Below, piece by piece: positions 9,653 through 50,881 of a stretch of 64,000 bases of DNA. This DNA is from a virus. The notes beneath the pieces were generated by a model. It saw only the letters and a program-made list of their open reading frames with translations, was not told where the DNA came from and ran no database searches. Location: positions 22,807 through 86,806 of IMG/VR virus record IMGVR_UViG_3300010399_000034. One strand, given 5' to 3'. Made by a program: the position numbers and the translations under genes. Each line of letters opens with the position of its first letter. The stretch's first letter is position 1.

Positions 9653-9975
9653 TCGCGGACCTCCCACGTCGAGAGCCCGATCGCATCGCATTCGGCTTGC
9701 GTCAGGTGATGCCACCTGACGAGCGTTTCGATCGACTCTTCGGTTGTCATCTGCGCGTCGTCGGCATGCGCACCAGGCCTTTCGAACTGCCGGCCGACGT
9801 TGACCGCTACTTCGATCTCGTATTCGAGGAGCTGCCTCTCGGCTTCGTCCAAAGCTCGAAAACTCGCGTGTGAAACGATCCAGCGCGTGTGAAGGCCAAT
9901 CCACTCGCGTGGCGTCACTCGAAGAACTACGTACTTGTCGCGATCGTCGAACAGGTAGCTGCGTACGAGTTTCAT
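9649..9975 (-). CDS. Hypothetical protein
   Basis: ATGA-coupled ORF starting MKLVRSY. Confidence 0.5.
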   Translation of the reverse strand: MKLVRSYLFDDRDKYVVLRVTPREWIGLHTRWIVSHASFRALDEAERQLLEYEIEVAVNVGRQFERPGAHADDAQMTTEESIETLVRWHHLTQAECDAIGLSTWEVRE

Positions 9976-10367
9976 TGACACACCGTCGGCAAGCAGTAGA
10001 TCGCAGCGTCGTTGTGGAACTCCTCGCACGAGTTGACGTCGAGGCTTGCGAAGCAGCGCTCAAGCTCCTCTTCGTCACACGTGCCGCGCACCCATGGGCA
10101 GCTCGGCATCGGACAGCCAGGCTCGATCGAGCCGTCGAGCACGCCGACGTTCCACTCGAGCGTGAACTCGTTGCAGGCTTGTGCGGCTGTAGTCTGCTGC
10201 TCGGCCGGCGCGCACGAGCTCGAGAGGATCGCGATCACGATTGCGAGAACTAGGATCCCGAGCGCGTAGAGGCAGCCCGTCGTATTGATCACGACATGAC
10301 GCTTGGCGCCCTCCGCGTTCGTCATTGTGAACGTTACTTCGAACAACGGCTTCTTCTCGTCGCTCAT
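9972..10367 (-). CDS. Cys-rich membrane/lipoprotein
   Basis: TM segment ending LSSSC, followed by 8 Cys. Confidence 0.55.
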   Translation of the reverse strand: MSDEKKPLFEVTFTMTNAEGAKRHVVINTTGCLYALGILVLAIVIAILSSSCAPAEQQTTAAQACNEFTLEWNVGVLDGSIEPGCPMPSCPWVRGTCDEEELERCFASLDVNSCEEFHNDAAIYCLPTVCQ

Positions 10368-10729
10368 GGCTTTGAGCCCTCCCCGCGGATCTCTACGTAC
10401 GCTTCGAGCGCAGCGAGGACTTCAGCTTTCGCGGCGCGAAAGATCGTATAGCTTTCTGGGCGGGACCTGTGCGGTCCGACATTGAAGAGTGCCGCAACAG
10501 CGTCCGCGAGCTTGTCGGCCGCTTCGAGTTGCTCCGTCGGCCAGTCGATCGGCTCGTCGTCTTCGATTCGACGCCCGAACGCTGCCTCAGCGACCGTTTG
10601 TTCGGTCATCTCGGACAGCCACTTGCGGAGCGCAGGGAACGCGTTGAAGAACTCTTCGCGAAGAGCAGCTCGCGTCGCTTCTCGCGAAACTCCGAACCCA
10701 CCGAAGGGCTTCTTCTCATCATCGGCCAT
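10364..10729 (-). CDS. Hypothetical protein (PolA-fingers-like segment plus LEAAD helix)
   Basis: AAAGG RBS; FFNAFPALRKW...FGRRI. Confidence 0.6.
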   Translation of the reverse strand: MADDEKKPFGGFGVSREATRAALREEFFNAFPALRKWLSEMTEQTVAEAAFGRRIEDDEPIDWPTEQLEAADKLADAVAALFNVGPHRSRPESYTIFRAAKAEVLAALEAYVEIRGEGSKP

Positions 10730-13587: not shown

Positions 13588-13767
13588 TCAGCGTTTGCTC
13601 TTCCGAGGACCACCCTTGCTCTTCTTCCGTTCCTTCCGGCGTCGGAGCGTCTTTGGATTGCCGTTCGCCGGCTTGGTCGAGATCTCGACGGGCGTGCTCT
13701 CGAGGAGCGCATCGAGACCGGCGATGCCCGCATTCAACGGGATGCGAATCCGCGGTACGAGCTTCAT
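13588..13767 (-). CDS. Small basic protein
   Basis: MKLVPRIRIP...RRRKERKKSKGGPRKSKR; ATGA-coupled to the recombinase. Confidence 0.45.
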   Translation of the reverse strand: MKLVPRIRIPLNAGIAGLDALLESTPVEISTKPANGNPKTLRRRKERKKSKGGPRKSKR

Positions 13768-14642
13768 GCGTCCCTCATCTTCTTCCGGACCTGCCGGAGT
13801 AGCTTTGCCGACTCGAGCGCGGCTGCTTCGTCGAGGTAGCCGTCGGTCGTCTCGGGCGAGTCGTGGTTCAAGATCTTCTGAACAGCGAACCTGTTACCAG
13901 AGATCATGCCTGCTTGCAATGCTACGGTGCGACGAAGCCGATGCAAATAGATTCTGTCCTCGATGCCCGCAGCGGCCGCGAGCTCGTGAAGCTTGCGCCG
14001 ACAGGCCTGATACGCTGCGCCGTTCGCGGTCCAGTCGTCCGTCTTGCTGACGGCCGTGGCGACGAGCTGACCTTCGCCGAGGCGATCGCGCAGGCGCTTC
14101 CATTCCCGCTTGGCGCCGAGCACCGAATAGACGATCGGCTTACTCCCCTTCACCACGATCCGTGTGATCCCGTCCTCGCGTGCGAATCCGGCATCGATGA
14201 CCCCAGCGTCGGTCCGCAGCACGTCCGAGACGCGCAGAGCCGAGCTGCACATCACGTCGATCACCCGGCCGGCCGTCGTCTCGTCTGCCTCTACGAGTCG
14301 AAGGAACGGCCTCCACAGCTCGATCGGGATGGACACGGCCTCCTTGAGCCGCTTGGGCTCCTTGCGCCTCTTCCTCTTGCGGTGCGACGCCGGCTCGGGC
14401 GGGAGCTCGGCGGGCGGTGGAAGCCTGTTCCGGCGCCCCTCAGATTCGCAGAAGTCGGCCCAGAGGGCCCACGCCCAGCGGTAGTCACGCAGGCGCTTGC
14501 GGAGCATTTGCGAGGCCGGCGGGCTCGTCCCGTGGTCGCGCATCGTCCTCACGTCGTTCGCAGCCTTCCGCGCCGAGGTGATCGCCAGCTTCTCGCGATC
14601 GATCATCCACGCACGAAAGCGGTCGAGTGCTTCGGCGTTCAC
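13764..14642 (-). CDS. Tyrosine recombinase/integrase
   Basis: Catalytic R (ALRVSD), K (VKGSK), HxxR (HRLRRT), H and Y (LNHDSPETTDGY); GTG start overlaps the upstream stop. Confidence 0.9.
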   Translation of the reverse strand: MNAEALDRFRAWMIDREKLAITSARKAANDVRTMRDHGTSPPASQMLRKRLRDYRWAWALWADFCESEGRRNRLPPPAELPPEPASHRKRKRRKEPKRLKEAVSIPIELWRPFLRLVEADETTAGRVIDVMCSSALRVSDVLRTDAGVIDAGFAREDGITRIVVKGSKPIVYSVLGAKREWKRLRDRLGEGQLVATAVSKTDDWTANGAAYQACRRKLHELAAAAGIEDRIYLHRLRRTVALQAGMISGNRFAVQKILNHDSPETTDGYLDEAAALESAKLLRQVRKKMRDA

Positions 14643-15130
14643 TTGGCCCTCGTGTATTCGTGGCCGCTCTCGGTGAGCTGCCAGATGCTTCCACCGCGAT
14701 ACGCGCCAACGGAGAATGCGAGATCGCGACGTTTGAGCGCGTACAACGTCGCGTGGTGAAACGACCGCACCGATCCGCCGTGATCGATCGCGCGAAGGCA
14801 CGCGAGCTGCACCTTGTTCAGGCGCCACTGGCGCGGGCGTGGACTCCGGATCTCGACGACGCGCTTGGTGATCGAAGGCCCCATGCAGCAAAGCCGAGCT
14901 CGGCCGAAGAACGAATCGTTCAGCGCGCACGTGCGGATCGCCGTCGCCGCGTTCTTCTGTTGCGCCCAAAGCAGCGCGCAGCGGACATGGAACGTCCAGC
15001 ACCCGAGCTGCACCGGGTTGAATGCGAGCTTCTTACAGCGATCGCACGGCACCATCTTGCGGACTTCGTGCGATGTCTTCGGGCGATCGCATCGGCACGG
15101 CCCTTCTTTGATTTTGAGCTTGGGCATCAC
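14639..15130 (-). CDS. Hypothetical protein, Cys-rich N-terminus plus wHTH-like C-terminus
   Basis: CRC..CDRC; TLYALKRRDL...WQLTESG. Confidence 0.5.
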   Translation of the reverse strand: MMPKLKIKEGPCRCDRPKTSHEVRKMVPCDRCKKLAFNPVQLGCWTFHVRCALLWAQQKNAATAIRTCALNDSFFGRARLCCMGPSITKRVVEIRSPRPRQWRLNKVQLACLRAIDHGGSVRSFHHATLYALKRRDLAFSVGAYRGGSIWQLTESGHEYTRAK

Positions 15131-15480: not shown

Positions 15481-15704
15481 GGTGCGCCCTTCTTCGCTTT
15501 GCGCTTCGCGCACATCGTTGCCGCATCGAAGCGGAGTTTGCGCGCCATCGTTTCGTGCTTCTCGGCACTCGCAATCTTCACGCAGATGGAGCACGACTTT
15601 GGGCGGTAGACGCCGTCGGCGTGCATCCACACGCTTCGATGTGCGATGTGTCCGCAGCGCGGACAGGCGTGCTTTACCTTCGCCATTTGCGCGACGCCGC
15701 TCAC
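15477..15704 (-). CDS. Small Zn-finger protein
   Basis: CPRCGH...CSIC. Confidence 0.5.
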   Translation of the reverse strand: MSGVAQMAKVKHACPRCGHIAHRSVWMHADGVYRPKSCSICVKIASAEKHETMARKLRFDAATMCAKRKAKKGAP

Positions 15705-15943
15705 GCCCCGTCGTCCTCGTTCGTATGCTCGAGGAAGCGCGCTCGATCAGCGCTCTTGCGAATCTGCTCGCGCAGGCTCTTCAGCTCTTCGAGATCGAGC
15801 GACCACTCGAGCAAGATCGGCGTGAGCAGATTCGTGATCGCCCCGCGGATTGCGGGCGTATGAAAGTCGATTCCGTGCGCCTCGCATTGCCGCTCCGCTG
15901 CGGCGAGCGCCTCATCCCGGCTCATCATGATCACCACCTCCAT
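15701..15943 (-). CDS. Hypothetical protein
   Basis: Coupled ORF. Confidence 0.5.
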   Translation of the reverse strand: MEVVIMMSRDEALAAAERQCEAHGIDFHTPAIRGAITNLLTPILLEWSLDLEELKSLREQIRKSADRARFLEHTNEDDGA

Positions 15944-15982
15944 GCGATCCGCGAGCGTTCGCGGATCGGAGCAGGCTGCGAT

Positions 15983-16567
15983 CTACTTCAGAAGATGCAG
16001 GAGCGCGCCGATCTTCTCGGCACGCTCACGCGCCTGCGCTGCGCGCTTGCTCGCGTTGCCGTTGGCGTATTCGGACAGGTGGCGCAGGATGTGCCCGACG
16101 ATCGGGTTGATCTCGTATTCGCTTGCGACTTCCTGGATCGTGAGCTCACGCTCGGACGACTCCCACGCGGAGATCGATCCTTGCCAGCGCGACCACGATC
16201 CCGTGTATTCGAGCTCTACGAAACTGCCGTCATCGCGAATGAAGAGATCGGTACCCTCGTACGCCCCGCTGTTGGAACGCGGATTGTCCTCGATCGCGCC
16301 GGGCCATTTGTCCGAGACGCACATGCCACGCCACGCGGCACGCTTGCTGCTCTCGCGTTGCGAGTCCGTCGCTAGGCCCGTGCAGCGATATTCGATCTTC
16401 GGCCGACTACACAACGCCGGTAGCGCTCCGCCGAGCTTGGCGATGACCGCTTCGAGTAAGAGCGCATCCGCTTTGTTCTCTTCGGCGATCGCGCTCACGA
16501 GCGCGACGTGCTGCGCCTCGACCGTCTTTGCAAGCGTCTCGATCTGATTCAACGTTTCGGTTTCCAT
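15983..16567 (-). CDS. Hypothetical early protein
   Basis: Strong GAGGAGG RBS. Confidence 0.7.
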   Translation of the reverse strand: METETLNQIETLAKTVEAQHVALVSAIAEENKADALLLEAVIAKLGGALPALCSRPKIEYRCTGLATDSQRESSKRAAWRGMCVSDKWPGAIEDNPRSNSGAYEGTDLFIRDDGSFVELEYTGSWSRWQGSISAWESSERELTIQEVASEYEINPIVGHILRHLSEYANGNASKRAAQARERAEKIGALLHLLK

Positions 16568-16614
16568 GGTGTCCTCCTCGAACGAATGCCGCGGCTCCTC
16601 ACCGTGGCAAGCGC

Positions 16615-16670
16615 TTGATCTGCGCTCGGACAGCGCTCTCGCGTGAGAGCACCTACCGGCCGAAGATCAA
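16615..16670 (-). repeat. Intergenic conserved hairpin, copy A
   Basis: TTGATCT-TC-GGCCGGTAG-[GTGCTCTC/GAGAGCGC]-TGTCCGAGCG-C-AGATCAA. Confidence 0.85.
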
Positions 16671-16915
16671 TCCTGTCGAGCGGCCTCCCGCCACTGGTAG
16701 CGCTGCGTTGCTTCGTTGACCTCGAGTGCCGCATTGATGAGCTCGCTCATCGTATAGGTCCGTTGAAACCGATACGGCAGCGCATCGTCGAGCCGTCGCT
16801 CGGCTTGATCCGTTTCGCCCCAACCACCCTCAGGGCAGCCTACGAAGCTTCCGAGAGCTCGACGGATGTTCGGGTTGTTGAGCGCTTGATTGAGCGTCTG
16901 TTTCTTCTCGGACAT
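16667..16915 (-). CDS. Hypothetical protein
   Basis: AAAGGGGGAG RBS; starts MSEKKQ. Confidence 0.6.
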   Translation of the reverse strand: MSEKKQTLNQALNNPNIRRALGSFVGCPEGGWGETDQAERRLDDALPYRFQRTYTMSELINAALEVNEATQRYQWREAARQD

Positions 16916-16926
16916 CGCTCCCCCTT

Positions 16927-17310
16927 TCACTCGCACGCTTCGGTGCACTCCGGCGATTCCAAGATCGCGCGGACGTTGACACAGTTGTCGCCCTGCTCCG
17001 CGAGCTCGCGTGCGCAGAACGCCACCGCTTCCGCATTGCAGACTCCGGCGAACGGGCACGCGACATCGCACTCGTTCGCGACCATTTCGCATGCCTCGGC
17101 CGTGTCGATCGTCTCGGGGCCCGCGTCGAGCGCCTGCCCGGCGTCCGCGCCCGAGTCGCAGTCGTGAAGGCACGTGATCGGATGCCCGTCGATCGGTTCG
17201 AGTTGCCCGGCGTCGTTCACGAGCTCGGGGCCCGCATCCGTTTCGGCAGGAACGTGACACACGCCGCATCCGCCGAGCATGAGCACGCACGCAATCAAGA
17301 GTCGTCGCAT
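16927..17310 (-). CDS. Cys-rich lipoprotein with DAG repeats
   Basis: MRRLLIACVLMLGGC lipobox; DAG repeats typical of myxobacterial lipoproteins. Confidence 0.7.
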   Translation of the reverse strand: MRRLLIACVLMLGGCGVCHVPAETDAGPELVNDAGQLEPIDGHPITCLHDCDSGADAGQALDAGPETIDTAEACEMVANECDVACPFAGVCNAEAVAFCARELAEQGDNCVNVRAILESPECTEACE

Positions 17311-17324
17311 TTGGAAACCTCCCA

Positions 17325-17410
17325 TGGAGCGCCCGGGGGCTCGAACCCCGGACACAGGACTCAGCATGCGATCTTCGCCGCAGCAGCCTGCATGCACCAA
17401 CGTGCGCCCC
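17325..17410 (-). ncRNA. tRNA-like RNA with alanine identity elements (mini tmRNA-TLD-like)
   Basis: GGGGCGC/GCGCTCC-A acceptor with G3.U70; 13-nt unpaired D region; long hairpin replacing the anticodon arm; CCGGGG-TTCGAGC-CCCCGG T-arm. Confidence 0.7.
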
Positions 17411-17416
17411 GAAGAA

Positions 17417-17845
17417 TCAGCCTAGCCATTCATGCTTGAGGCTATACCCTCGCGCGTAGCACTCCGGCGTAGGCTTGTTGGCAGCCTTGAAGCTCCCGGA
17501 CGTGGTCCGCTCCTCTCCACCGCCTTTCGATTCCGGATGAAGCGTCAGGCTCAGCTCGTGAACGAGCGCAAAGCCCATATCCATGCCGCACCCACTGATG
17601 CCCACAGCTTCGCGTCGTTCGTCGAATCGATATCCGAGCGCCTTAGCTACGTTGTAGCTGAGCCACAAATGATCGATGCGGCCCTCATCTCCACACTTGA
17701 ACACGTAGAGATCGATCGCGCGGTACATGCCCGAGCGAGCGACGTGCCGAAGGACGCACGTCACGACGGATCCGGGCGGAAGAATCTCCCGCAAGCGCTC
17801 GATCGCCTCTTGCCGCTCCGCTTCTTTCTCTTTCTTGCTCGCCAC
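17417..17845 (-). CDS. Conserved hypothetical phage early protein
   Basis: LPPGSVV..VLRHVARSGMYR.I, ISGCGMDMGF, YSLKHEW. Confidence 0.75.
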   Translation of the reverse strand: MASKKEKEAERQEAIERLREILPPGSVVTCVLRHVARSGMYRAIDLYVFKCGDEGRIDHLWLSYNVAKALGYRFDERREAVGISGCGMDMGFALVHELSLTLHPESKGGGEERTTSGSFKAANKPTPECYARGYSLKHEWLG

Positions 17846-17864
17846 GATTTCCACCCTTTCAGCG

Positions 17865-17923
17865 TTGAATCCCGCTCGGAGTCCGCGTGTCAGCTAGACG
17901 CGCGGCTACCGGCCGCTATTCAA
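17865..17923 (-). repeat. Intergenic conserved hairpin, copy B
   Basis: TTGAAT-AGC-GGCCGGTAG-[stem-loop]-ACTCCGAGCG-GG-ATTCAA. Confidence 0.85.
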
Positions 17924-17925
17924 TG

Positions 17926-18339
17926 CTACCCCTGCGCTGCTTCGATTTCTTCCCATGAATCAGGGTCCACGTAGGTGTCCACGAGGTACTCTTCTGCTTC
18001 CGCGTTCGTCTCGAACGGGCCCGCCCATTCGGTGCAGTCCATGTAACCGGAAGCGCTCAGCCGAGCGAAATAGCCGTGGACGTATTCCGCATCGGCAAGG
18101 CCCTCGACCCCGTTCGGATGATCGAGTTCATCCGGCGTCCCTTCGCAGTAGTCTTGCACCGCATCGATCGTCGGATAGCCGTGCTCTTGCGCCTTTTCGT
18201 CACCGATCAGATCGGCGGGGACCGTGTACGTTTCGCCACCATTGCAGCTCACAGCCCATGCGCCCATGAGCTCGATCTCGGGGGACATGAACTGCGCTTC
18301 CAAGTGCGCCATGCCCTTCGCTCGTTCGTTGTTGTCCAT
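17926..18339 (-). CDS. Conserved acidic phage early protein
   Basis: GYFARLSASGYMDCTEWAGPFET. Confidence 0.7.
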   Translation of the reverse strand: MDNNERAKGMAHLEAQFMSPEIELMGAWAVSCNGGETYTVPADLIGDEKAQEHGYPTIDAVQDYCEGTPDELDHPNGVEGLADAEYVHGYFARLSASGYMDCTEWAGPFETNAEAEEYLVDTYVDPDSWEEIEAAQG

Positions 18340-18355
18340 CGTGTTCTCCCTTCGG

Positions 18356-18410
18356 TTGAATCCGCTCGGACGAACGCGAGCCGAGCTCGCGTCCTACCGG
18401 CCGGGTTCAA
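18356..18410 (-). repeat. Intergenic conserved hairpin, copy C
   Basis: TTGAAC-CC-GGCCGGTAG-[ACGCGAGC/GCTCGCGT]-CGTCCGAGCG-G-ATTCAA. Confidence 0.85.
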
Positions 18411-19180
18411 GCTTCGCAAACCTCCCACGCGCGTTTCGCAGGATCGGTCGGAGGCCTGTAGTGTCCCCCAGCGCAAAGCAGCCCGCAGCGCTTACAGGTC
18501 CGGCGTGGCGACGTCCAGCGGCGCGCTACCGCCCAATAGGGCTCGACCAACGGATCATCGTCGAGCGCGCTCCATCCGTGGTACGACGCGGCCAGTTCGT
18601 ACAGATAACAGACATCGCGCGGGAGTCCGCTCAGGGCCGCTTCGAAGATCTCCCACGGATCTTGATCCGTGTAACGCGCGATGCTCTCCCATTCGCACCA
18701 GTCGAGCGCGCTCCGAATGTCCTCGGGAGTTGCGCCTACGGGAACCCTGTAGACTTCGAGCCCCGTCTTTCGATACGCGCGCTGCTCCTCACGCGTGCCG
18801 TATTCGTCGCCGTCCGTTTCGGCGCCTTCGATCCCGGGCGTGTATTCGAGCATGAGCTCGCACCCGTAGCGCGAGCGGACCTTGACCAGCGCTCCGCCCC
18901 CGTGATCCTCGGGCGAGGTATCACCGATCCGCTCGATCACGGTCCGGCGTACACCGCGAGGCTTGCGCTCGTGCATGCCGACGAGGGAGGCGCGAAGCTC
19001 GCGCGCACGTACATCGCCACTCTCCGGGCGCCCTGCGACGTAGTCCGCGGGATCGCCCTTCGGCTCGTATCCGCCCGCTGCGCGCCACGCTGCGTAATCG
19101 CGCAGAGCCGCTCGCGCTTCGCTGTACTCACCACGAACGAACGCGCGTTGCGCGCGTTGTAGACATGCTTCCGGATCCAT
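18407..19180 (-). CDS. Hypothetical early protein
   Basis: GGGAGGGG RBS; MDPEACL...WRAAGGYEP; IGDTSPEDHGG. Confidence 0.7.
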   Translation of the reverse strand: MDPEACLQRAQRAFVRGEYSEARAALRDYAAWRAAGGYEPKGDPADYVAGRPESGDVRARELRASLVGMHERKPRGVRRTVIERIGDTSPEDHGGGALVKVRSRYGCELMLEYTPGIEGAETDGDEYGTREEQRAYRKTGLEVYRVPVGATPEDIRSALDWCEWESIARYTDQDPWEIFEAALSGLPRDVCYLYELAASYHGWSALDDDPLVEPYWAVARRWTSPRRTCKRCGLLCAGGHYRPPTDPAKRAWEVCEA

Positions 19181-19198
19181 GATCAACCCCTCCCTTCT

Positions 19199-19254
19199 TT
19201 GATCTGCGCTCGCACGGTGCGCTCGGATGGAGCGCACCTAGCGGCCGTAGATCA
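19199..19254 (-). repeat. Intergenic conserved hairpin, copy D
   Basis: TGATCT-AC-GGCCGCTAG-[GTGCGCTC/GAGCGCAC]-CGTGCGAGCG-C-AGATCA. Confidence 0.85.
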
Positions 19255-19434
19255 CTCAAGATCGAAAGCGATCAACTCAGCCATCATGCCGGGGCGCTCC
19301 GCGTTCAGTACGCGGAATGCGGCCGCTTCGTTGACCGCATACGCGCTGAACGTCTCGCCGTCCGCGCACTTGTAGTAGTAGCGCGATCCGCCACCGGCCT
19401 GCCGTGCGCGTTCCTCCTGAGTCTGCCGCTCCAT
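19252..19434 (-). CDS. Small hypothetical early protein
   Basis: First gene of the leftward unit; GAGGGG RBS. Confidence 0.6.
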   Translation of the reverse strand: MERQTQEERARQAGGGSRYYYKCADGETFSAYAVNEAAAFRVLNAERPGMMAELIAFDLE

Positions 19435-19482
19435 CCGATCCCCTCTTTCCGGCCGGCTTCCGCCGCGCTCGAATCCTAGTAT

Positions 19483-19498
19483 TGCATGCGGCGGGCCA
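19483..19498 (-). promoter_or_regulatory. Putative sigma54-type promoter (leftward)
   Basis: TGGCCCGCCGCATGCA: GG and GC at the -24/-12 spacing. Confidence 0.5.
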
Positions 19499-19499
19499 A

Positions 19500-19655
19500 G
19501 TCAGCTAGGCACCCTTGCTAGCTGACAAAAGGCCCTGTCGGACTATAGTCCGACAACGCGATCGGCCTCGAGCTCGCACCCACACCTACATGTAGCCCTG
19601 TGAAGAAAAAGGCCCTCAAACCGTGCCGATCCGGCCCAGACTACATGTAGGTGTG
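19500..19655. promoter_or_regulatory. Palindrome cluster in the divergent control region
   Basis: GTCAGCTAG-N9-CTAGCTGAC (19500-19526); perfect 20-bp palindrome TGTCGGACTATAGTCCGACA (19536-19555); 15-bp inverted pair CACACCTACATGTAG / CTACATGTAGGTGTG (19581-19595, 19641-19655). Confidence 0.7.
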
Positions 19656-19678
19656 AGCCGGCTCGGCGCGATCCAAGC

Positions 19679-19694
19679 TGGCACGGCGCTAGCA
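19679..19694 (+). promoter_or_regulatory. Putative sigma54-type promoter (rightward)
   Basis: TGGCACGGCGCTAGCA compared with consensus TGGCAC-N5-TTGCA. Confidence 0.55.
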
Positions 19695-19707
19695 TTGTAA
19701 GGGTTCC

Positions 19708-19971
19708 ATGGAAGGCGGAACGGCGAGTAGGACGGTGTGGATCGAGCGGAGCAAGGTCTACCCCGCTCCCGGCTCGAACCCGCGCTATCAATGGCGCTGG
19801 ATCTACCGCCTCCGTTGCGAGGGTTTCACCGGCCCGACCTGGACTATGCCGGACGGCCGCTCGGGTGCAGTGTCCTTCGAAGGGCAGACCCTCAGCACCA
19901 TCCGCCAAACGGCGGCGAAGATCGCTCGCGAGCACGGCGCGGCCGTCCGCGAAGCATGGAAGGAAGGCTGA
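19708..19971 (+). CDS. Hypothetical early protein
   Basis: First rightward ORF after the control region. Confidence 0.55.
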   Translation: MEGGTASRTVWIERSKVYPAPGSNPRYQWRWIYRLRCEGFTGPTWTMPDGRSGAVSFEGQTLSTIRQTAAKIAREHGAAVREAWKEG

Positions 19972-19973
19972 TC

Positions 19974-20624
19974 ATGAAGCGCTACAGCGAATGGTCCCCG
20001 AGTCCGCACGACACCAAGGGGCTCAATCTGCCGGACCGGCAGGACTGGATCGTGGTCCCCACGATTCGCGCGCGCGACTCGGGCCCGCTGGACGAGTCCA
20101 ACTTCGCTGTGGCTCTCGCGACGCTCGGCGGCGAGAACGCCGGAGAAGACGAGAACGGCGAGAACGGCATGATCGAGACGCACTCGTTCAATCACTGGGC
20201 GTGCGGATGGTTCGAGATCATCCTGGCTCACCCTTCGCGCGAGCTCGAAGTACAGGCGATCGCCGATCGGCTCGAAAACTATCCGATCTTGGACGAGAAC
20301 GACCTGTCGGAGCGTGAGCTCGAAGCAGAAGGGGAGGGATGGGAGAGCTACGCCCGGCGCGACGTCACGCGCAAGCTAGTCGAGGATTTCGGCCTCAGCG
20401 ATGCGGCGGAAGCCTTGCTCGACGAATCGGGCGAGACGATCTACGCGGCGTTGATCTGCGGGCACCACTACTCGGAAGGGATCAAGACTCAGATCCAGGT
20501 CGAGCACGACGACGAAGGGCCTCGCTTCGATACGGATCAACTCGATCCGATGACGCGCGAGGAAATGGCGTTGCTTCTTCGGCTCTGCCGCAAAGAGAAG
20601 CGCGCCGCGATGGCCAAAGTCTGA
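19974..20624 (+). CDS. Conserved phage early protein
   Basis: RDSGPLDESNF, FNHWACGWFE, LENYPILDE. Confidence 0.75.
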   Translation: MKRYSEWSPSPHDTKGLNLPDRQDWIVVPTIRARDSGPLDESNFAVALATLGGENAGEDENGENGMIETHSFNHWACGWFEIILAHPSRELEVQAIADRLENYPILDENDLSERELEAEGEGWESYARRDVTRKLVEDFGLSDAAEALLDESGETIYAALICGHHYSEGIKTQIQVEHDDEGPRFDTDQLDPMTREEMALLLRLCRKEKRAAMAKV

Positions 20625-20700
20625 TCTTCGCGTTCGCTCCGGCGCACGAGTCCTACTCGTGCTCCGCGTGAGACTGCGAAGTCTGAAGGGAAGGGTTTCA

Positions 20701-21126
20701 ATGCGTGGGATCAAGGTTCCGAGCGCGGCGCGGCTCTGCACGGCGTTCCCGCAGCTCGAACGTGAGCAAGCTTTGTTGATCCGGAAGCTCGCGCACGTGC
20801 GCGATGAACCGGAACGGCTCGGCGCATTGCTCGAAAAGGAGTGTCCGGAAACGGACGCGTATCGGCGCCGCTGCTACAACGATCCGCTCGATTCACGGAT
20901 GTGGCGCACTACGCTGGTGCTCCATGCGATCGATCTGATCCTCGGAACGTCCGGCGTAGAAGTCTTGGGCGAGCCCGAAGATTTCAGATCGGCGCCTCCG
21001 TACGAATACTGCAATACCGGCGATTCGTACGGCACGACGTTGGTCTACCACCGCGACGCGGACGCGATCCGGATCGGAAGCTGGGCTGACATCGCAGAAC
21101 GGATGCCCGAGAAAGGCGAGGGTTGA
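20701..21126 (+). CDS. Conserved phage early protein
   Basis: AAGGGAAGGG RBS; LGTSGVE, YCNTGDSYGTT, IGSWADIAE. Confidence 0.75.
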   Translation: MRGIKVPSAARLCTAFPQLEREQALLIRKLAHVRDEPERLGALLEKECPETDAYRRRCYNDPLDSRMWRTTLVLHAIDLILGTSGVEVLGEPEDFRSAPPYEYCNTGDSYGTTLVYHRDADAIRIGSWADIAERMPEKGEG

Positions 21127-21128
21127 TC

Positions 21129-21431
21129 ATGGACTGGAAACAACGACACACCGAAGCTATGCGCGCTCCGCGTGGACGCGAGCTCGCGATCGTCCGCATG
21201 CTGCAAGCGTGGGAGCTGTACCGCGAGCAGCACCGACAAGCCTACGAATCCGGGATCGGAGATGACGGCGTGCTCGGGCCCGAATGGGCGGCAATCGGTT
21301 TCGCGATCCGCGGACTCCTGAACGGAGATTGCGGACGCTTGGACTGCGGCACGATCGACGGCGGGATCTGCGACGCGCTTACCGCCGAGGGCTTCGATCC
21401 GTACATCGAGGGCGAACGTCTACCGCGTTGA
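21129..21431 (+). CDS. Hypothetical protein
   Basis: GIGDDGVLG..W...LLNGDCGRLDCGTID. Confidence 0.65.
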   Translation: MDWKQRHTEAMRAPRGRELAIVRMLQAWELYREQHRQAYESGIGDDGVLGPEWAAIGFAIRGLLNGDCGRLDCGTIDGGICDALTAEGFDPYIEGERLPR

Positions 21432-21482
21432 ATCTGGCCGCTAGGCGCTGAGTCATGCTCGGCGCCGTGCGAGCGGAGTCAA
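21428..21482 (+). repeat. Intergenic conserved hairpin, copy E
   Basis: TTGAAT-CT-GGCCGCTAG-[GCGCTGAG/CTCGGCGC]-CGTGCGAGCG-G-AGTCAA. Confidence 0.85.
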
Positions 21483-21501
21483 CAACAGAAGGGAAGGGTG
21501 C

Positions 21502-21939
21502 ATGAACGAGCGAGATCTCCCGCGCACGCCGCGCAAGCGGCCGCGCCGAACGGTCGAGAAGAAGCTGCGCGAGCTTCGCGCGGACGAGGTTACGTTCACG
21601 CTCGAGATCGAGCCGGAATGCGAGCCGTATGTCGGGAACTGCTCGGCGATCGATCCCGAGACGGATCGCGAGCAAGAGGACTGGATCCGGCGCGAGCTCG
21701 ACGCCGGCAACGTCGCCGCATGGTGCTCGGTTGTCGTGCGAGCCACATGGGAAACGCCTACCGGCCGCACGATCGTCGGGATCGCTTCCCTTGGCGCGTG
21801 CTCCTACCGCAGCGTCATGGAGATCCGCCGCGAGCTGTATCCAGAGATGTGCGAGAACGCTCTCGACGATCTCAATCGCTCGATCGGAGCAATCTTCGAT
21901 TCCGCGGATGCGCTCCGCAACGCGTTGAAAGAGGTCTAG
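21502..21939 (+). CDS. Hypothetical early protein
   Basis: GGGAAGGG RBS; AWCSVVVRA...LGACSY. Confidence 0.7.
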   Translation: MNERDLPRTPRKRPRRTVEKKLRELRADEVTFTLEIEPECEPYVGNCSAIDPETDREQEDWIRRELDAGNVAAWCSVVVRATWETPTGRTIVGIASLGACSYRSVMEIRRELYPEMCENALDDLNRSIGAIFDSADALRNALKEV

Positions 21940-21941
21940 CC

Positions 21942-22217
21942 GTGCACCTTACAATCTACGCGCGCAAATCCGAGAACGAGCGGCCGAAGGACCGGCCGAT
22001 CCACGTCCGGAAGCACGGCGCGTTCGCGACGTCTGCGGGCGGAGGGCCGTCGTACCCGGCGACCGTATCGCTCCGCTTCGAGCTCGAAGAAGAAGCGAAA
22101 TGGGGCCATCCCGTCGTCTGGATCAGTAACATGTCCGCGGATGAAGCGGCCGAGCTCGGGAGCATGCTGCTCAACGCAGCCGATCGCGCTCGCGCGCTCG
22201 CACGAGGGGAGAAGTAG
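21942..22217 (+). CDS. Hypothetical protein
   Basis: GAGG RBS with GTG start. Confidence 0.5.
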   Translation: MHLTIYARKSENERPKDRPIHVRKHGAFATSAGGGPSYPATVSLRFELEEEAKWGHPVVWISNMSADEAAELGSMLLNAADRARALARGEK

Positions 22218-22219
22218 CC

Positions 22220-22612
22220 ATGGATCGCAACGCTGCTGATTACGATCGATACCACGGGCCGGACGCGCGGGAGAAGCCCGCTACGATCAAGGTCGAGATC
22301 GAGATCGACGAATCAGAGGTCATGGCGTGCATCGAGTCCGCGCTCGGGAGTCACACCTACGGGATCGGCTACTGGGGCGAAGTGAAGTACGGAGAACACG
22401 CGACGTGCGTCCGCGAGCGCGAAGACGAGGAGGATCCCGAAGTGCCGGGACCCTGGCGCGCACTCGACGATGCTGCGATCAAGCGTGGTCTCGCCGTGCT
22501 CGCGAGGATTCAACCCAAGCTCTTCGGACGATTGCTCGCCGGACAGGGCGATGGACCGCTCGGCGATCTCTTGATCCAGTGCGCGCTATTCGGAGAGGAG
22601 CGTTACGGATGA
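22220..22612 (+). CDS. Conserved phage hypothetical protein
   Basis: GIGYWG...GDLLIQCALFGEERYG. Confidence 0.7.
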   Translation: MDRNAADYDRYHGPDAREKPATIKVEIEIDESEVMACIESALGSHTYGIGYWGEVKYGEHATCVREREDEEDPEVPGPWRALDDAAIKRGLAVLARIQPKLFGRLLAGQGDGPLGDLLIQCALFGEERYG

Positions 22613-22839
22613 GCCGGAAGATCGTTCACACGATGAGCGACGGAACGAGGATCGAGCTCGAACGCGAGGCGTACGTCTCCGTCATTGCAACAGACGCGCG
22701 CAGCGCGCTCGCGTTCTTCGGATTCCGCCCTGGCGAAGCGTGGGCGGTCGACGCCGGCCCGCCGGCCGATCCGCACCGCTGGAAGCCGAACGCGCGCCGC
22801 TGGCACGTGTACCGCAACAAGGGGGACATGCCGTCATGA
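22609..22839 (+). CDS. Hypothetical protein
   Basis: ATGA-coupled. Confidence 0.5.
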   Translation: MSRKIVHTMSDGTRIELEREAYVSVIATDARSALAFFGFRPGEAWAVDAGPPADPHRWKPNARRWHVYRNKGDMPS

Positions 22840-36870: not shown

Positions 36871-39720
36871 TCACACCGAATACCAGTCATCGCCGATCTT
36901 GGCGACGGCAGGAAATGGCATCGCATCTGCCCCAGGAACCAATGTTAGCTTCTGCGACATACAACGCTCGAGGAGCGCCGCGACCTTGTCGGCTTTGTGC
37001 TCGTCGCATTCAACGTAGATCGCGTCGTGGACCTGCGCGATGATGATCGCAGTCGGGTCGACGCTCGGAAGTTGATGCGCAAGTTCGAGCATCGAGAGGT
37101 TCATCATCGATGCGACCGTTGAGTTCTTGCTGATGATTCCTGCACTGTCGTAGCGGTGGAGGTCGTGCTGGACAGCAAGCGTGTACAAGTCTGCGCTTTC
37201 CTCGAGCTGACACACTGCCGCAACGGTCCCGGTCGAATAGAGCTCAGCGTCGCGCCAGTCACCAGCAGCCTCCGTCATACGCTGAAGCGTGTGCGGGTTC
37301 GTTGTACCGCCGTGCGCCAACCGAGACCAAAGCACGTACATGCTCCGCTCCGTGGCGTACGAGAACGGGTTTCGTGGGTAGGTTTCAAGAAACCGATCAC
37401 GCGCGGCACGACCAAGACGATCATCACGACTGAAACGTTGTCGATCCGTTGGATCGCCGTAAGCGAGCTGGCTCCGCAGCAGGGAGCCAGCGAAGTTCAG
37501 CCGCCACGCCATGTGTCCATCGCGATCGGAGACATACGGTCCGTCGATACGCGAGGTCACGCCGCAACTTCGTGCGAGCAGTTGCAGGTCACGAAGCAGC
37601 TCTAGGTTCGGCGTGTTGGAAGACGGCTGCCCCATAGACAGCGTTCCGTCAGCGTCCATGTAGCCGAGAAGGAACGCTTTTCGCGCCGACAAGCAAGCAC
37701 GCCAGATCGAATCTGGTACGCGTTTCGTCTTGGCACGCCAAGTCGGGTCAACCCCCCAGGAGGGGAGAAGCTGTCGAAGGCGACTATCTGCGGCCACGCT
37801 GATTGCCGTCAATGGTCCGTGAACCTGGGCCTTCCAGAGGCCGCCGTATTGTATCGCCCAGCGTGTAAAGGACGCAGCGTACTCGTCATGCGCGAAGCGT
37901 TTTACACGTGTACCGAAGCACCACACAAGTTGGTCTGTGGAGCCGGTTCGTTGCGACCACGACCCGTTTCCGATCCAATACCCGAGCCAGTACGCGTCGG
38001 CGTCATTGAAAGGGGCACCGAACTCCTGCGCTGAGGCAAGCGGCTGCGCAATACGGTCGCCTTCACGTAACTCTCCAACAGCGCGCCATTCGAACTCGAT
38101 TCCGTCGTCACGAAGCACGCGAAGATAGTGTTCTTCGTTCGTCTGAAGTACATGCCCGTTGGTGAGCTTCGTCTCCCATAGTTGCTCAGTCCGCTTTCCA
38201 AGCGTCATCGATGGAGCCCATTGATTTGGCGCGCCGAGCGACGCGGAGCACGTCGCATGTTCCACCGGGAGATAGCCTTCTGTTGTAAGAACGCGCGTCC
38301 CGCCTCGAACGCACTGCATCTTGTAGTTGTATACAACTGTCGCATCGATCAAGAGAAGCGGGAACTCGCGACGACGACCGATGAGCGCGTCGGTGACACG
38401 GCCAGTTCGCTTGGCTTCAGTGAGCTCGCGCTCGCGCCACGGCCGCACCGACGGGAACGCTTTGAAGATCGCGGCGAGGATCGTCTCGACCGTCGCGATG
38501 TCGATCGGCATGCCCTCGTAGCCGCCGTCGTAGATGGAGTTGAGGATCGTCTCCGACCCAGCGCCGTAGAAGCTGCCGTAGATGACGCGCTTCTCGAGAT
38601 CGCGCAGCGCTGACCGCGTCTTGTCGTCGGCCTTGAGGTAGCCGTCCTTGAACGCGATCGCGCTCACGTACGCGTGTGGGTCGCAGTCGGGCTCGTACTT
38701 GCGCGCTTCGTCAGCGTTGACGCAGAGCGAGATGAGCTTCTCGTCGCCGCAGAGCGCACCGAGCACGCGAAGCTCAGCCTGTCCGAGGTCGGCGCCGACG
38801 ATCTTGCGGCCCGGCGGCGCGACGATGCACTCGCGGATGCCGGGCACCTCGAGCGTGATCTTCCCTGGCTTCGCCTTCGCGAGGAAGATCTCGTCGCCAG
38901 GAAAGAGCGGAAGCTGCCATGGACCGCCGTGCGGTCGGCCCTTGCTGTCGAGTGCCTCGAAGATCGCAAGCATGAGAAGGATGCGCTTCCCCCAGTTCAT
39001 TAGGTTCGGCTCGCTGCTCCATCTCCCGGTCCTCGCACCGAGCGGCTTCCAACGCACGCGGATGCGCCAGTCCTGCGAGACCGGCATCCCCTCGATGTAC
39101 GTCGACTTGATCTTCTCCCAGCGACGATAGTCAAGGAGCAGATCGACGAACGGATGACCCTTGTAAGAGAGCAACGACGATTTATCTGTCGATGGCTGCC
39201 CTTGTGGATGCGTCTTGCTCGGGTCGGTGTACTTCATCGGAAGCAGCCGACACGGCCCGTTCTTGTCGTAGAGCGCCCACGCGAGCTGCGGAGGACTCGT
39301 AGGGCTAAAGTCTGGCCGACCCGTGAATGCACGCAGGAGCTCGACCGAACGCGCCATGTAGAAATCAGAACGCTGCGACCAGCGGATCCACCGTTCTCGA
39401 CTCACTGGCAAGCCGGCGCGCTCGACGTCCTTCGCGACGTGGAACATCCCGACGTCGAGGTCATGGACGAAGCGTGCGTTCTCTGCTTCGAGCTCGGTGA
39501 GCTGCGAGAGCATGGAGAGCGTCGTATTGTAAACGTCGCGACCGTTGTAAGCGAAGAGCTGCTCGTTCGACTCCCAGACCTGCTGCCCGCCCTTCTCCTT
39601 CGGCGGCTTCCACGGCGGCGTGTCGGTGTAGCAGCCGGCGATGTGTTGCAAGCGATGAGGCTCGTCGGGATGAACGGCGTTGTGCGCGATCTCGGTGTCG
39701 TAGACGTAGCCGCGAGTCAT
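36871..39720 (-). CDS. polA: Family A DNA polymerase (C-terminal half of the 3'-5' exonuclease plus polymerase), intein-containing
   Basis: TGRWSS.PNLMN; motif A DLGQAELR; motif B R...KRVIYG..YG (Tyr at the 762-equivalent); motif C VHD; Exo III YNGRD. Confidence 0.95.
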   Translation of the reverse strand: MTRGYVYDTEIAHNAVHPDEPHRLQHIAGCYTDTPPWKPPKEKGGQQVWESNEQLFAYNGRDVYNTTLSMLSQLTELEAENARFVHDLDVGMFHVAKDVERAGLPVSRERWIRWSQRSDFYMARSVELLRAFTGRPDFSPTSPPQLAWALYDKNGPCRLLPMKYTDPSKTHPQGQPSTDKSSLLSYKGHPFVDLLLDYRRWEKIKSTYIEGMPVSQDWRIRVRWKPLGARTGRWSSEPNLMNWGKRILLMLAIFEALDSKGRPHGGPWQLPLFPGDEIFLAKAKPGKITLEVPGIRECIVAPPGRKIVGADLGQAELRVLGALCGDEKLISLCVNADEARKYEPDCDPHAYVSAIAFKDGYLKADDKTRSALRDLEKRVIYGSFYGAGSETILNSIYDGGYEGMPIDIATVETILAAIFKAFPSVRPWRERELTEAKRTGRVTDALIGRRREFPLLLIDATVVYNYKMQCVRGGTRVLTTEGYLPVEHATCSASLGAPNQWAPSMTLGKRTEQLWETKLTNGHVLQTNEEHYLRVLRDDGIEFEWRAVGELREGDRIAQPLASAQEFGAPFNDADAYWLGYWIGNGSWSQRTGSTDQLVWCFGTRVKRFAHDEYAASFTRWAIQYGGLWKAQVHGPLTAISVAADSRLRQLLPSWGVDPTWRAKTKRVPDSIWRACLSARKAFLLGYMDADGTLSMGQPSSNTPNLELLRDLQLLARSCGVTSRIDGPYVSDRDGHMAWRLNFAGSLLRSQLAYGDPTDRQRFSRDDRLGRAARDRFLETYPRNPFSYATERSMYVLWSRLAHGGTTNPHTLQRMTEAAGDWRDAELYSTGTVAAVCQLEESADLYTLAVQHDLHRYDSAGIISKNSTVASMMNLSMLELAHQLPSVDPTAIIIAQVHDAIYVECDEHKADKVAALLERCMSQKLTLVPGADAMPFPAVAKIGDDWYSV
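37123..38313 (-). mobile_element. Intein with LAGLIDADG homing endonuclease in PolA (397 aa)
   Basis: NYKMQ|CVRGGTRV...IISKN|S; TNEEH block B; WLGYWIGNG and FLLGYMDADG. Confidence 0.9.
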
Positions 39721-50666: not shown

Positions 50667-50881
50667 TTCGCCTCCCAGCCACGCGCGTTGAGCTCTTCGA
50701 ACAACGCCACGACTTGCATGATCTTTGCGCCGCTCCAACCAGCAGCAACTGCGAGCGCGACATCAAGTTCGATTGGCCCCCACGCGAAGCAATAAACGAA
50801 GCGTCCGTTGACGGCGATGCTTGCGCGCTTTGGCCAACGAAGTACCAGCGTCCCATCAGGCAACTCTGTTTCGCGACTCAT
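50663..50881 (-). CDS. Hypothetical protein
   Basis: Coupled ORF. Confidence 0.45.
   Translation of the reverse strand: MSRETELPDGTLVLRWPKRASIAVNGRFVYCFAWGPIELDVALAVAAGWSGAKIMQVVALFEELNARGWEAK

Follow-up and report, generated by a model that had tools for sequence, protein, structure and literature searches.

What are five similar hairpins, set between the early genes of an uncultured virus, doing there: are they signals in the messenger RNA, or sites in the DNA at which genes are exchanged? The window considered here is the whole stretch of 64,000 nt that was analysed (positions 22,807–86,806 of IMG/VR record IMGVR_UViG_3300010399_000034). A first-pass annotation had described five hairpins at gene boundaries, and all five were found in the window, in the sense orientation, at the following positions.

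16615–16670, minus strand: junction hairpin copy 1, 56 nt; covariance model score 70.8 bits; −33.3 kcal/mol, with 0 of 200 shuffles folding as well; UGA at nt 2–4 is the stop of the 82-aa gene 16667–16915; the next gene (15983–16567) starts at 47 nt
16610–16614, minus strand: tail GCGCU immediately 3′ of copy 1, whose complement AGCGC lies in the 3′ strand of the hairpin
17865–17923, minus strand: junction hairpin copy 2, 59 nt, the most divergent; 60.1 bits; the UAG stop of the upstream gene 17926–18339 is 5 nt ahead of the hairpin; GTG start of the next gene at 19 nt
18356–18410, minus strand: junction hairpin copy 3, 55 nt; 66.6 bits; UGA at nt 2–4 is the stop of the 257-aa gene 18407–19180; next start 16 nt on
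19199–19255, minus strand: junction hairpin copy 4, 57 nt, first junction of the leftward operon; 74.7 bits; −36.2 kcal/mol, z −6.6 against shuffles; UGA at nt 2–4 is the stop of the 60-aa gene 19252–19434
19441–19700, no strand: divergent promoter/operator region with several long palindromes, source of both hairpin-bearing operons
19522–19549, plus strand: sigma-70-like site within this region
21428–21482, plus strand: junction hairpin copy 5, 55 nt, in the rightward operon; 67.3 bits; UGA at nt 2–4 is the stop of gene 21129–21431

The placement relative to the genes is also as described. The hairpins follow the coding strand on either side of the divergent promoter region; the UGA at nt 2–4 is the upstream stop codon in four of the five, the exception being 17865 with its UAG 5 nt upstream; and a Shine-Dalgarno sequence and start codon come 12–19 nt further on in four copies and 47 nt further on at 16615. 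The pattern GGCCGSTAG-N(10-40)-GTSCGAGCG has four matches in the window and none in 100 shuffles, while the fifth copy (17865) departs from it by one mismatch and a 2-nt insertion. Taken singly, the two boxes are not enriched in the window (38 matches against 29.5 expected, and 110 against 133.7 expected). A covariance model built from the five copies scores them at 60–75 bits and has no further match above 16 bits in the window, the best matches below that score being the antisense strands of the same five sites. The total for the whole 86,806-bp virus record is five elements.

Fold, covariation and distribution of the elements

Each of the five copies folds at −32 to −37 kcal/mol, and none of 200 shuffles folds as well. 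The fold consists of four helices and two invariant 2×2 internal loops, arranged as a rod: P1 (5–7 bp), P2 (2 bp), the loop 5′-GC/5′-AG, P3 (3 bp), the loop 5′-UA/5′-NU, and at the top the variable P4 (9–10 bp) with its apical loop. Stacked together, P1–P4 and the two loops make about 24–27 layers. The G/C position that was said to covary with its partner does so (GC in three copies, CG in two), and compensatory changes occur at 10 of the 20 predicted pairs in the five copies. The variable apical stem, described as perfect, is perfect in four copies and carries a mismatch in 17865.

A search beyond the window, as had been proposed, recovered the same element from other uncultured virus DNA, for a total of 35 copies. 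One element-bearing group has genes in common with this virus; a second, consisting of a tailed phage and its kin, has no detectable protein in common with it. All 35 copies lie in intergenic DNA on the coding strand, with an upstream stop codon before and an RBS after; with gene calls in the relatives taken from a crude custom script, the first nucleotide of the upstream stop falls between −41 and +16 nt relative to the first base of the element, the UGA at nt 2–4 serves as that stop in 13 copies, and the next start codon is 12–83 nt past the element (median 23). The copies are grouped near promoters or genome ends, with 5 in 4.9 kb of the 86.8 kb of this virus and 10 in 8.5 kb of the 86.4 kb of G001. 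The motif had been thought undescribed, and neither the window nor 7 related loci contain an Rfam match that reaches the gathering score; near the elements the Rfam search gave one chance match only (E 2.2). Structured intercistronic junctions of this kind form a new family, to which the five elements belong and which is found in the early, promoter-proximal operons of several uncultured viruses from soil and groundwater.

In an alignment of 26 copies, pairing is kept in 95.7% of 470 cells and 17 of 19 pairs have changed on both sides in a compensatory manner, counts that are flattered because the alignments were fitted to the structure of the model. The covarying pairs include all three of P3 and both of P2. 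Slid controls pair in only 25–44% of cells, and none of 500 shuffles matches the alignment on any of five measures. Seven unpaired positions are invariant or almost invariant across the 35 copies (G 35, C 35, U 35, A 35, U 34, A 34, G 35). Directly 3′ of the hairpin there is often a tail ending in CGCU, whose potential pairing partner is AGCG in the 3′ strand; at copy 1, for instance, a small alternative 3′ hairpin is possible. At least five contiguous complementary nucleotides are found in 23 of the 35 copies, as against means of 2.5 (maximum 9) with shuffled tails and 10.5 (maximum 18) with tails exchanged among copies, in 500 trials each. This tail helix is contained in the unconstrained minimum-energy fold of many copies; it is weak or absent in 12 copies, including three of the five in the window.

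The strand that folds better differs between the two groups. In the group of this virus the sense strand is the better folder in 18 of 21 copies, whereas folding predictions favour the antisense strand in 13 of 14 copies of the second group. G·U pairs exceeded A·C pairs by 29 to 4 in the first 22 matches; over all 35 copies the ratio is 33 to 20, and 15 of the 20 A·C cells fall at one fixed P1 position of the second group. The strand argument is therefore limited to the group of this virus, and the pattern would be no different for single-stranded DNA of the same strand.

Possible processing or binding of the early RNA

The analogy first drawn with the early RNase III sites of T7 fits the anatomy, namely a hairpin of 24–27 layers with internal loops between the cistrons of a promoter-proximal operon. 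We put at about an even chance the reading that the elements act as an intercistronic signal for RNA processing or stability, comparable to the T7 sites, and also as a recombination linker, comparable to the PeSLs of T4-like phages. As described in PMC3867540, the T7 early transcript is a polycistronic precursor of about 7 kb with five RNase III sites, the ideal substrate has 22 bp, and internal loops lead to single-strand cuts that leave stabilising 3′ hairpins. Set against that description, the junction elements are likewise about five long imperfect hairpins with internal loops between promoter-proximal phage cistrons, their stacked helix of at least 22 bp is sufficient for RNase III, and cleavage as predicted would give the upstream message a protective hairpin at its 3′ end. 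They differ from the T7 sites given there in having no sequence similarity to them, in their seven invariant unpaired bases and covarying tail helix, in being common to unrelated viruses and in overlapping the upstream stop codon; cleavage is in their case only predicted.

Within an early polycistronic mRNA, the hairpin would be recognised either by an RNase III-like host endonuclease that is specific for double strands or by some other host factor through the two invariant loops. Cleavage near the GC/AG loop would end the upstream message in the stable P3–P4 hairpin, and the downstream message would start with a small AGCGNN...NNCGCU hairpin just 5′ of its RBS. Every early cistron would thereby become an independently stable, translatable mRNA, as at the five T7 sites. 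A host factor is favoured since the element is common to two virus groups without a shared protein and no RNase III domain is encoded in the four records searched. Nevertheless, bacterial RNase III is not known to require specific loop sequences, and the seven invariant unpaired bases therefore point equally or more to another reader.

Such a reader need not cut. Alternatively, the elements could bind a regulator that recognises specific RNA sequences (translational repressor, antiterminator or host protein), acts through the two invariant loops and controls all early cistrons together on uncut RNA. Invariant unpaired bases within freely covarying helices are the usual signature of protein recognition, the hairpin ends a few bases short of the RBS, and two alternative folds of similar energy are available. 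The RBS is, however, free in both folds and no candidate protein emerged; as no protein is common to both virus groups, the regulator would have to be a host protein. We consider this explanation unlikely, though it fares best among the alternatives to a processing or stability signal.

Gene replacement and the DNA-level explanations

A comparison of related genomes for gene gain, loss or shuffling exactly at these sites had been suggested. Against a close relative, gene replacements begin and end exactly at junctions, involving the 60-aa gene in one case and a pair of 141- and 100-aa genes in another. The copy 4 junction in L098 holds an element with compensatory changes, which has 79% identity to copy 4 and 88% to copy 1. 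Copy 5 (21428–21482) shares 91% identity with its counterpart in L095, and the homology with L095 starts at its first base. The neighbours of homologous genes differ in L088, in L089 and in a 21-kb contig. As shown by comparison of relatives, whole coding sequences are exchanged exactly between junctions, in the manner of PeSL cassettes, and the junctions mark points of gene swapping between related viruses. Since the same 55–75-nt sequence recurs between many genes, the junction doubles as a recombination linker.

PeSLs, or promoter-early stem-loops, are regulatory cassettes of T4-like phages (PMC2839356, PMC4122927). By the accounts given there, they too are short conserved stem-loop repeats that flank mostly ORFan genes in variable regions and bound insertions, deletions and replacements between close relatives, which suggests for the junction elements a role as linkers for homologous recombination. 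PeSLs carry a strong sigma-70-like promoter and an effective terminator, whereas none of the five elements matched a sigma-70 promoter scan or a terminator scan; the junction elements bring an RBS instead, and mini-circles have been shown on the PeSL side only.

The same boundaries could arise if the elements were primarily DNA sites, whether folded single-stranded DNA or duplex inverted repeats, at which the phage tyrosine recombinase or a host enzyme excises, inserts and reorders early-gene cassettes in the style of integron attC sites. The array of genes, most of them ORFans, that share one promoter and are accompanied by co-oriented folded repeats, the tyrosine recombinase at the end of the array here (13764–15002) and in the 21-kb relative contig, the occurrence in two groups without shared proteins, the antisense preference of the second group and the short inverted repeat formed by the 3′ strand and tail all agree with it. 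The likeness extends to attC sites as described in PMC5027507, which are imperfect hairpins whose unpaired features are conserved and whose terminal structure varies; they follow promoterless and mostly unknown genes that run in one direction from a single promoter, close to a tyrosine recombinase. Unlike these, however, the elements have YUGA...UCAA at the base of the hairpin instead of RYYYAAC/GTTRRRY R boxes with their AAC/GTT triplets, their loops are symmetric where attC sites have extrahelical bases, and in the group of this virus the better folder is the coding strand instead of the bottom strand. The recombinase, a generic member of its family, is not IntI and scores 34 bits on the Xer/integron-integrase model with a cut-off of 220 bits. 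The element lies upstream of a homologous gene in one genome, downstream in another and is missing in a third, so that there is no unit of gene plus site. Moreover, a DNA site would not need strict spacing to stop codon and RBS, and ordinary homologous recombination equally predicts breakpoints at the edges of conserved junctions. A primary role as DNA sites is thus judged rather improbable. From the first-pass interpretation, a structured and undescribed boundary motif stands, while the integron reading finds no support.

Selfish miniature mobile repeats of the REP, REPIN or MITE type, moved by a transposase in trans, of no benefit to the virus and placed wherever insertion is tolerated, are a still more doubtful explanation. 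The elements are repeated intergenic palindromes found in unrelated viruses, and the unpaired UA and following G right before the variable stem recall the GTAG tag of REPs (PMC3733652). As with the GTAG-tagged REPs of that account, a GC-rich palindrome comes after an unpaired tag with UAG at its end and is located within operons, 3′ of coding regions, plausibly as a stabiliser at the RNA level. The base ahead of UAG varies, however (G 14, C 11, A 1 in 26 copies), and the GTAG tag is therefore not kept. In contrast to the REPs of bacterial chromosomes described there, the elements number 1–10 per genome and occur in viruses only, the palindrome is nested in two more conserved helices, and a RAYT gene is absent; a scan of 185,579 species genomes with a strict pattern gave 18 loci, none with the variable stem, and no true copies. 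Copies within a genome are old, only 51–81% identical with compensated differences, every copy is oriented with the coding strand and keeps a close distance to the translation signals, and a Y1 transposase is absent from G000. That the cistrons are separated without protein by a new small self-cleaving ribozyme, an idea also raised at first and suggested by the intercistronic position and the conserved unpaired nucleotides in the two internal loops, is very improbable, for the fold is a simple rod with loops of just 2×2 nt, without the junction or pseudoknot that known self-cleavers need, and no Rfam ribozyme family matches.

Neighbouring hairpins and the divergent promoter region

Two other hairpins occupy intercistronic positions near the family members.

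15945–15968, minus strand: simple perfect 10-bp hairpin between the stop of gene 15983–16567 and the RBS of gene 15701–15943; −24.1 kcal/mol, with 2 of 200 shuffles folding as well
20622–20683, plus strand: hairpin between the stop of the 216-aa gene and the RBS of gene 20701–21126

The latter had been taken for a degenerate sixth copy. It is a genuine hairpin (−33.5 kcal/mol, with 1 of 200 shuffles folding as well) but is missed by the family model, and is a separate intercistronic hairpin outside the junction family. Within the divergent promoter region and its flanks (approximately 19406–19766), five alignment rows have 33–85 of 90 columns identical to L098. This relative also keeps the hairpin at 20622–20683, with an apical stem that differs in sequence and preserves its pairing and with a U-A to C-G change in the outer stem; downstream of it, the homology with L098 stops at the ATG.

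A structured element in two groups of viruses

The hairpins at the early gene junctions of this virus form a real and well-supported family of structured elements, new in that Rfam 15 contains no match to it. The virus record (G000, from IMG/VR) is 86,806 bp long with 63% G+C, ends in a direct terminal repeat of 123 bp, and includes the window as its bases 22807–86806. The first-pass annotation had reported five copies of the element, and all five were located at the positions it named. These copies, together with three further sites to which the argument refers, are listed here.

Junction hairpins and other sites in the early region of the window
16615, minus strand: junction hairpin
17865, minus strand: junction hairpin
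18356, minus strand: junction hairpin
19199, minus strand: junction hairpin
21428, plus strand: junction hairpin
15945–15968: other intercistronic hairpin, at a junction without an element of the family
20622–20683, plus strand: other intercistronic hairpin (hairpin 6), at a junction without an element of the family
19522–19549, plus strand: sigma-70-like site from a consensus scan

A two-box pattern of the element has four matches in the window and none in 100 shuffles; in the fifth copy one base differs and two nucleotides are inserted. Taken singly, neither of the boxes is enriched, and therefore the signal is the paired arrangement. Every copy is a long hairpin of −32 to −37 kcal/mol, a value equalled by none of 200 shuffles. 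A covariance model built on the five copies and run unfiltered (R1) finds only these five in the window, at 60–75 bits; its next-best matches there score at most 16 bits and are mostly the antisense strands of the same five. A relaxed pattern and a second model (R2), run across the entire record, return the same five copies and no others. Among DNA contigs that are probably the source of this DNA, one full-length contig covers 15500–22500 without joints. In a search of sequencing runs, that of these contigs was the only one to contain the stretch, and no run of RNA matched it. The motif had been proposed to be undescribed, and this is borne out by Rfam 15, which at gathering score, ribozyme families included, gives no match in the 64-kb window or in seven related loci. 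With E values up to 5, a single unrelated match of 17.4 bits (19870–19935) appears near the elements.

The fold consists, from 5′ to 3′, of helices P1 and P2, a 2×2 loop (5′-GC/5′-AG), helix P3, a second 2×2 loop (5′-UA/5′-NU), helix P4 and an apical loop. A helix with a bulged A, the first proposal of RNAalifold, was displaced, as the wider set of copies favours the fold adopted by single sequences. In 26 copies 95.7% of 470 cells are paired and 17 of the 19 pairs vary on both sides, counts to be read with the caveat that the alignments had been fitted to the model. None of 500 shuffles of these copies attains any of five measures, and when the partners are slid only 25–44% of the cells are paired. 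P2 is paired in all 26 copies, including U-A and A-U variants, while an alternative partner for P2 failed in 11 of 22. Compensatory variants are found, in one copy or more, for each of the three pairs of P3. Across all 35 copies no change is seen at the four loop bases of the 5′ side or at the G of the 3′ loop, and the U and A of the 3′ side are kept in 34. The family is a new structured nucleic acid with unusually clean covariation, found in uncultured viruses only and absent from Rfam.

Copies outside this record were sought by pattern and accepted by model. Of 18 loci obtained by exact-pattern scanning of metagenome contigs, six (L088, L089, L090, L094, L095 and L098, from five contigs) hold true copies according to the models. 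A 21,029-bp contig (L094 and L090) carries nine copies on a single strand, L089 three within 2.6 kb and L088 two; the groundwater contigs L095 and L098 have one apiece and share an overlap of 555 nt, 96% identical. A diverged form of the element came from two more pattern scans, both of viral contigs. Ten such copies lie on one strand of G001, a record of 86,416 bp with terminal repeats, all of them within 77.5–86.0 kb; G005 has two, and G004 and L160 have one each. The accepted copies number 35 in total, with R2 scores of 34–69 bits, against at most 30 bits for the chance loci of the first viral and the bacterial scans. From 37 model matches, L090:4951–5006(−), the antisense of a true copy, and L160:3156–3194 (20.2 bits) had been dropped. 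The 77 loci of the first pattern scan of viral contigs are chance matches, none of which has the fold (best R2 score 24.8 bits), and the 18 loci from a scan of 185,579 species genomes are pattern-forced chance matches without the variable stem. L097 and L134 share one pattern-forced stretch; L097 stands among the 22 rows of alignment A3 and was omitted from alignments A4 and A5.

The carriers fall into two groups. Group A comprises G000, its groundwater relative, the 21-kb contig, L088 and L089, which share several proteins at 27–80% identity. Group B comprises G001 and G005, which have genes in common, plus G004 and L160, assigned to it by the form that the element takes in them. Among the proteins of G001, a tailed phage, are a Mu-type portal, an S49 protease and a GH25 lysin. 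A tblastx comparison of G001 with G000 gave nothing of 50 bits or more, with a single match of 41.8 bits (E 4e-4), and two G000 proteins searched directly had no match in group B. The two groups, both carriers of the element, are unrelated, with no detected shared protein. Such a distribution suggests either a host factor common to both groups or a regulatory part that has spread laterally, and occurrence across groups offers a handle for linking viruses to hosts. The cultured-phage collection gave no match by DNA or protein. Viral contigs searched with the 257-aa protein and the DNA polymerase yielded no relatives, and the 216-aa protein reached two distant contigs, both without the element; a search for homologous proteins with the 257-aa protein found one relative, P0002. 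In L082, a distant relative through the 216-aa protein, long GC-rich intergenic hairpins (9920–10000 and 10530–10630) flank the gene for that protein and contain GGCCGC and CGAGCGG pieces. They are recognised by neither model and may be a further diverged type of junction.

The groups also differ at the base of P1, which reads YUGAnn...nnUCAA in group A and CUGACC...GGCCAn in group B. Cells with G.U outnumber those with A.C by 29 to 4 in the first 22 matches (the A3 rows, including L097) and by 33 to 20 in all 35 copies, where a single fixed P1 position in group B accounts for 15 of the 20 A.C cells. In G001 this fixed mismatch falls on the UGA among the first bases of the element. By predicted energies the sense strand is the more stable in 18 of 21 copies of group A but in only 1 of 14 of group B; with predictions so divided, the strand argument is good for group A and not general.

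Gene junctions and gene exchange

All 35 copies are intergenic and lie on the coding strand. With gene calls from our own script, the upstream stop codon begins −41 to +16 nt from the first base of the element, UGA occupying nt 2–4 in 13 of the 35, and 12–83 nt (median 23) separate the element from the next start codon, which has a Shine-Dalgarno sequence ahead of it. Junctions of the window that lack a hairpin are of the overlapping ATGA type. Almost none of the genes beside the elements belongs to a known family.

Many copies are followed by a tail ending in CGCU, the complement of an AGCG in the 3′ strand that is made up of the invariant AG loop bases and P2. The complementarity covaries, as the base after AGCG and the base before CGCU change together. 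At least five contiguous complementary tail bases are present in 23 of the 35 copies, compared with a mean of 2.5 copies (maximum 9) for shuffled tails and 10.5 (maximum 18) for swapped tails. In the unconstrained minimum-energy fold of many copies a small tail hairpin replaces P1 and P2. Within the window the tail is clear at 16615 and 17865, and weak or absent at the other three. In the 77.5–86.0 kb region of G001 (L102, minus strand), an extended block ending in CCUGAGAGGAG follows five of the ten copies and CUGAGAGGAG follows two more, these RBS blocks lying about 5–10 nt ahead of the start codon; the repeated unit there is therefore hairpin, tail and RBS together.

Three other accounts of the junction were rejected. 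Stops in all three frames (element plus 12 nt) occur in 11 of 35 copies, against a mean of 2.1 and a maximum of 6 in shuffles, and so are enriched, yet they do not define the element. Sequestering by an anti-Shine-Dalgarno sequence is countered by the CUCC of the 3′ strand, present in some subgroups only, and by an RBS that is open in both folds. SECIS-like recoding is at odds with the number of copies whose UGA is in frame, only 13 of 35, and with a separate RBS and start codon downstream.

Comparison with relatives demonstrates that the element is associated with modular gene exchange. The groundwater contigs L098 and L095, which represent the Hainich relative, align to 18635–21840 of the window; shared genes have 60–80% protein identity, and the differences are replacements of whole genes. 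For instance, the 60-aa gene at 19252–19434 has an unrelated gene in its place in L098, and the homology around it ends at the start codon and restarts, on the other side, at the first base of the element. Similarly, the genes 20701–21126 and 21129–21431 give way in the relative to a gene of 112 aa plus another open frame, the left edge being hairpin 6 with its RBS and ATG and the right edge the first base of the element at 21428. The proposal that the elements bound exchanged genes agrees with both of these segments but does not cover the 87-aa gene at 19708–19971(+), directly after the rightward promoter; this gene is absent from L098, where the 216-aa gene directly follows the promoter region, and the difference is not at an element. 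The comparative support for exchange at junctions is direct and of base-pair resolution.

The elements themselves have changed as well. Those at the same junction carry compensatory changes. With copy 16615 the element of L098 shares 88% identity, and only 79% with copy 19199 at the corresponding junction, so that by sequence resemblance the copies may exchange sequence among themselves. In more distant relatives, homologous genes have other neighbours and other element positions. The 145-aa gene has the element upstream in this virus and downstream in the 21-kb contig, and the 130-aa gene, with no element in this virus, has one on either side in L088. These shifts argue against the earlier suggestion that each early gene and its own site travel as a fixed cassette.

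Known systems and the probable role

The analysis shows how the element folds, that the fold is conserved, where it is placed and that replacement boundaries coincide with it. We infer that the element acts in RNA, with a role in processing or stability as the probable one. Like an RNase III signal of the T7 type, it is a hairpin between cistrons that spans about two helical turns, with about 24–27 predicted stacked layers and two internal loops, and its size is that of an ideal RNase III substrate. The likeness is one of anatomy, and cleavage itself is proposed by analogy. Five such sites lie in the T7 early precursor, and internal loops lead to single-strand cuts by RNase III that leave stabilising 3′ hairpins (PMC3867540). 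A cut near the GC/AG loop of the element would release AGCG to pair with the tail, and the downstream message would then start with a 5′ hairpin before its RBS. Such a 5′ hairpin favours mRNA stability in E. coli and Bacillus. Should the processing model prove right, polycistronic expression in high-GC bacteria would have in the element a natural insulator of compact size.

No RNase III domain is found in the four virus records searched (G000, G001, G004 and G005), so the reader of the element would be a host enzyme or another host factor, in keeping with its occurrence in viruses that are unrelated. RNase III is not known to need as many invariant loop bases as the seven of the element, and for that reason a different reader is quite possible.

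The evolutionary behaviour of the element is the same as that of the PeSLs of T4-like phages, with replacement boundaries at repeats, and a role in recombination is described for PeSLs (PMC2839356, PMC4122927). A PeSL, however, is a strong sigma-70-like early promoter with a stem-loop terminator, and the elements look like neither. A consensus scan of 15500–22500 gave one promoter-like site (19522–19549) and seven terminator-like sites, none of them at an element, and no T-run follows any of the five hairpins. The idea behind PeSLs, that repeated regulatory junctions are the seams of accessory-gene exchange, is extended here beyond T4-like phages.

Membership among REP/REPIN sequences is improbable. 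These are palindromes of 20–40 bp with an unpaired GTAG tag and a RAYT transposase, present in high copy in a bacterial chromosome. The tag of the element is SUAG instead, where S is G in 14, C in 11 and A in 1 of 26 copies; there are 1–10 copies per virus record, the 18 loci of the species-genome scan lack the variable stem, and the transposase family PF01797 is absent from G000. In this comparison, which covers the viral records and that scan, tag, copy number and transposase speak against membership.

It is also unlikely that the junction is a portable "gene socket" of stop codon, protective hairpin and RBS, which would move early genes within a lineage and between unrelated viruses of the same hosts through structure-specific recombination on the folded strand, with the invariant loops as recombinase recognition and the RNA role secondary. 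If true, this would be a virus-borne cassette-exchange system distinct in mechanism from integrons.

The first-pass annotation had further likened the hairpins to integron attC sites, and this reading fails. An attC site has R″ and R′ boxes (GTTRRRY and RYYYAAC) at the hairpin base, with strand exchange at the AAC triplet (PMC5027507). It also has extrahelical bases, an unpaired central spacer, a variable terminal structure and a better-folding, G:T-rich bottom strand, which is antisense to the cassette gene; IntI lies beside the array, and each cassette is one gene with its own 3′-end site. The element shares the variable terminal structure. Nevertheless, the base of P1 has no R boxes, with AAC arising only by chance of variable bases; the unpaired features are two symmetric 2×2 loops; the bias in group A is toward the sense strand; and gene and site do not form a constant unit. 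The recombinase at 13764–15002 scores 33 bits on Pfam Phage_integrase, and only 34 bits on the Xer/integron integrase model NF040815 (cut-off 220) and 24 bits on XerC (cut-off 335).

Other features of the window

The region of divergent promoters that separates the two early operons (19441–19700) is highly conserved relative to L098, with 33–85 of 90 columns identical per alignment row over about 19406–19766 (five rows). Among its several long palindromes are a repeat centred on CTACATGTAG, present twice, and a hairpin with a 9-bp stem at 19535–19556. The palindromes are probably operators of a shared repressor. The sigma-70-like site at 19522–19549(+) falls in the same region.

Between the genes 17417–17845 and 16927–17311, the stretch 17325–17410(−) resembles the 3′ part of a tRNA, with an acceptor strand, a CCA end and a T-arm whose loop is GGTTCGA. 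No call was made there by ARAGORN or Rfam, and the stretch could serve as the core of a phage attachment site or, within the same operon, as a processing signal of tRNA-like form. The neighbouring early gene 16927–17311(−) encodes a Cys-rich protein of 128 aa with a lipoprotein-type signal, its hydrophobic stretch ending in GGC, and the product may be a surface or superinfection-exclusion protein. Farther along, the genes for a family A DNA polymerase (36871–39777, minus strand) and an SNF2 helicase (50878–53580, minus strand) each contain a LAGLIDADG/Hint segment, and both probably bear inteins.
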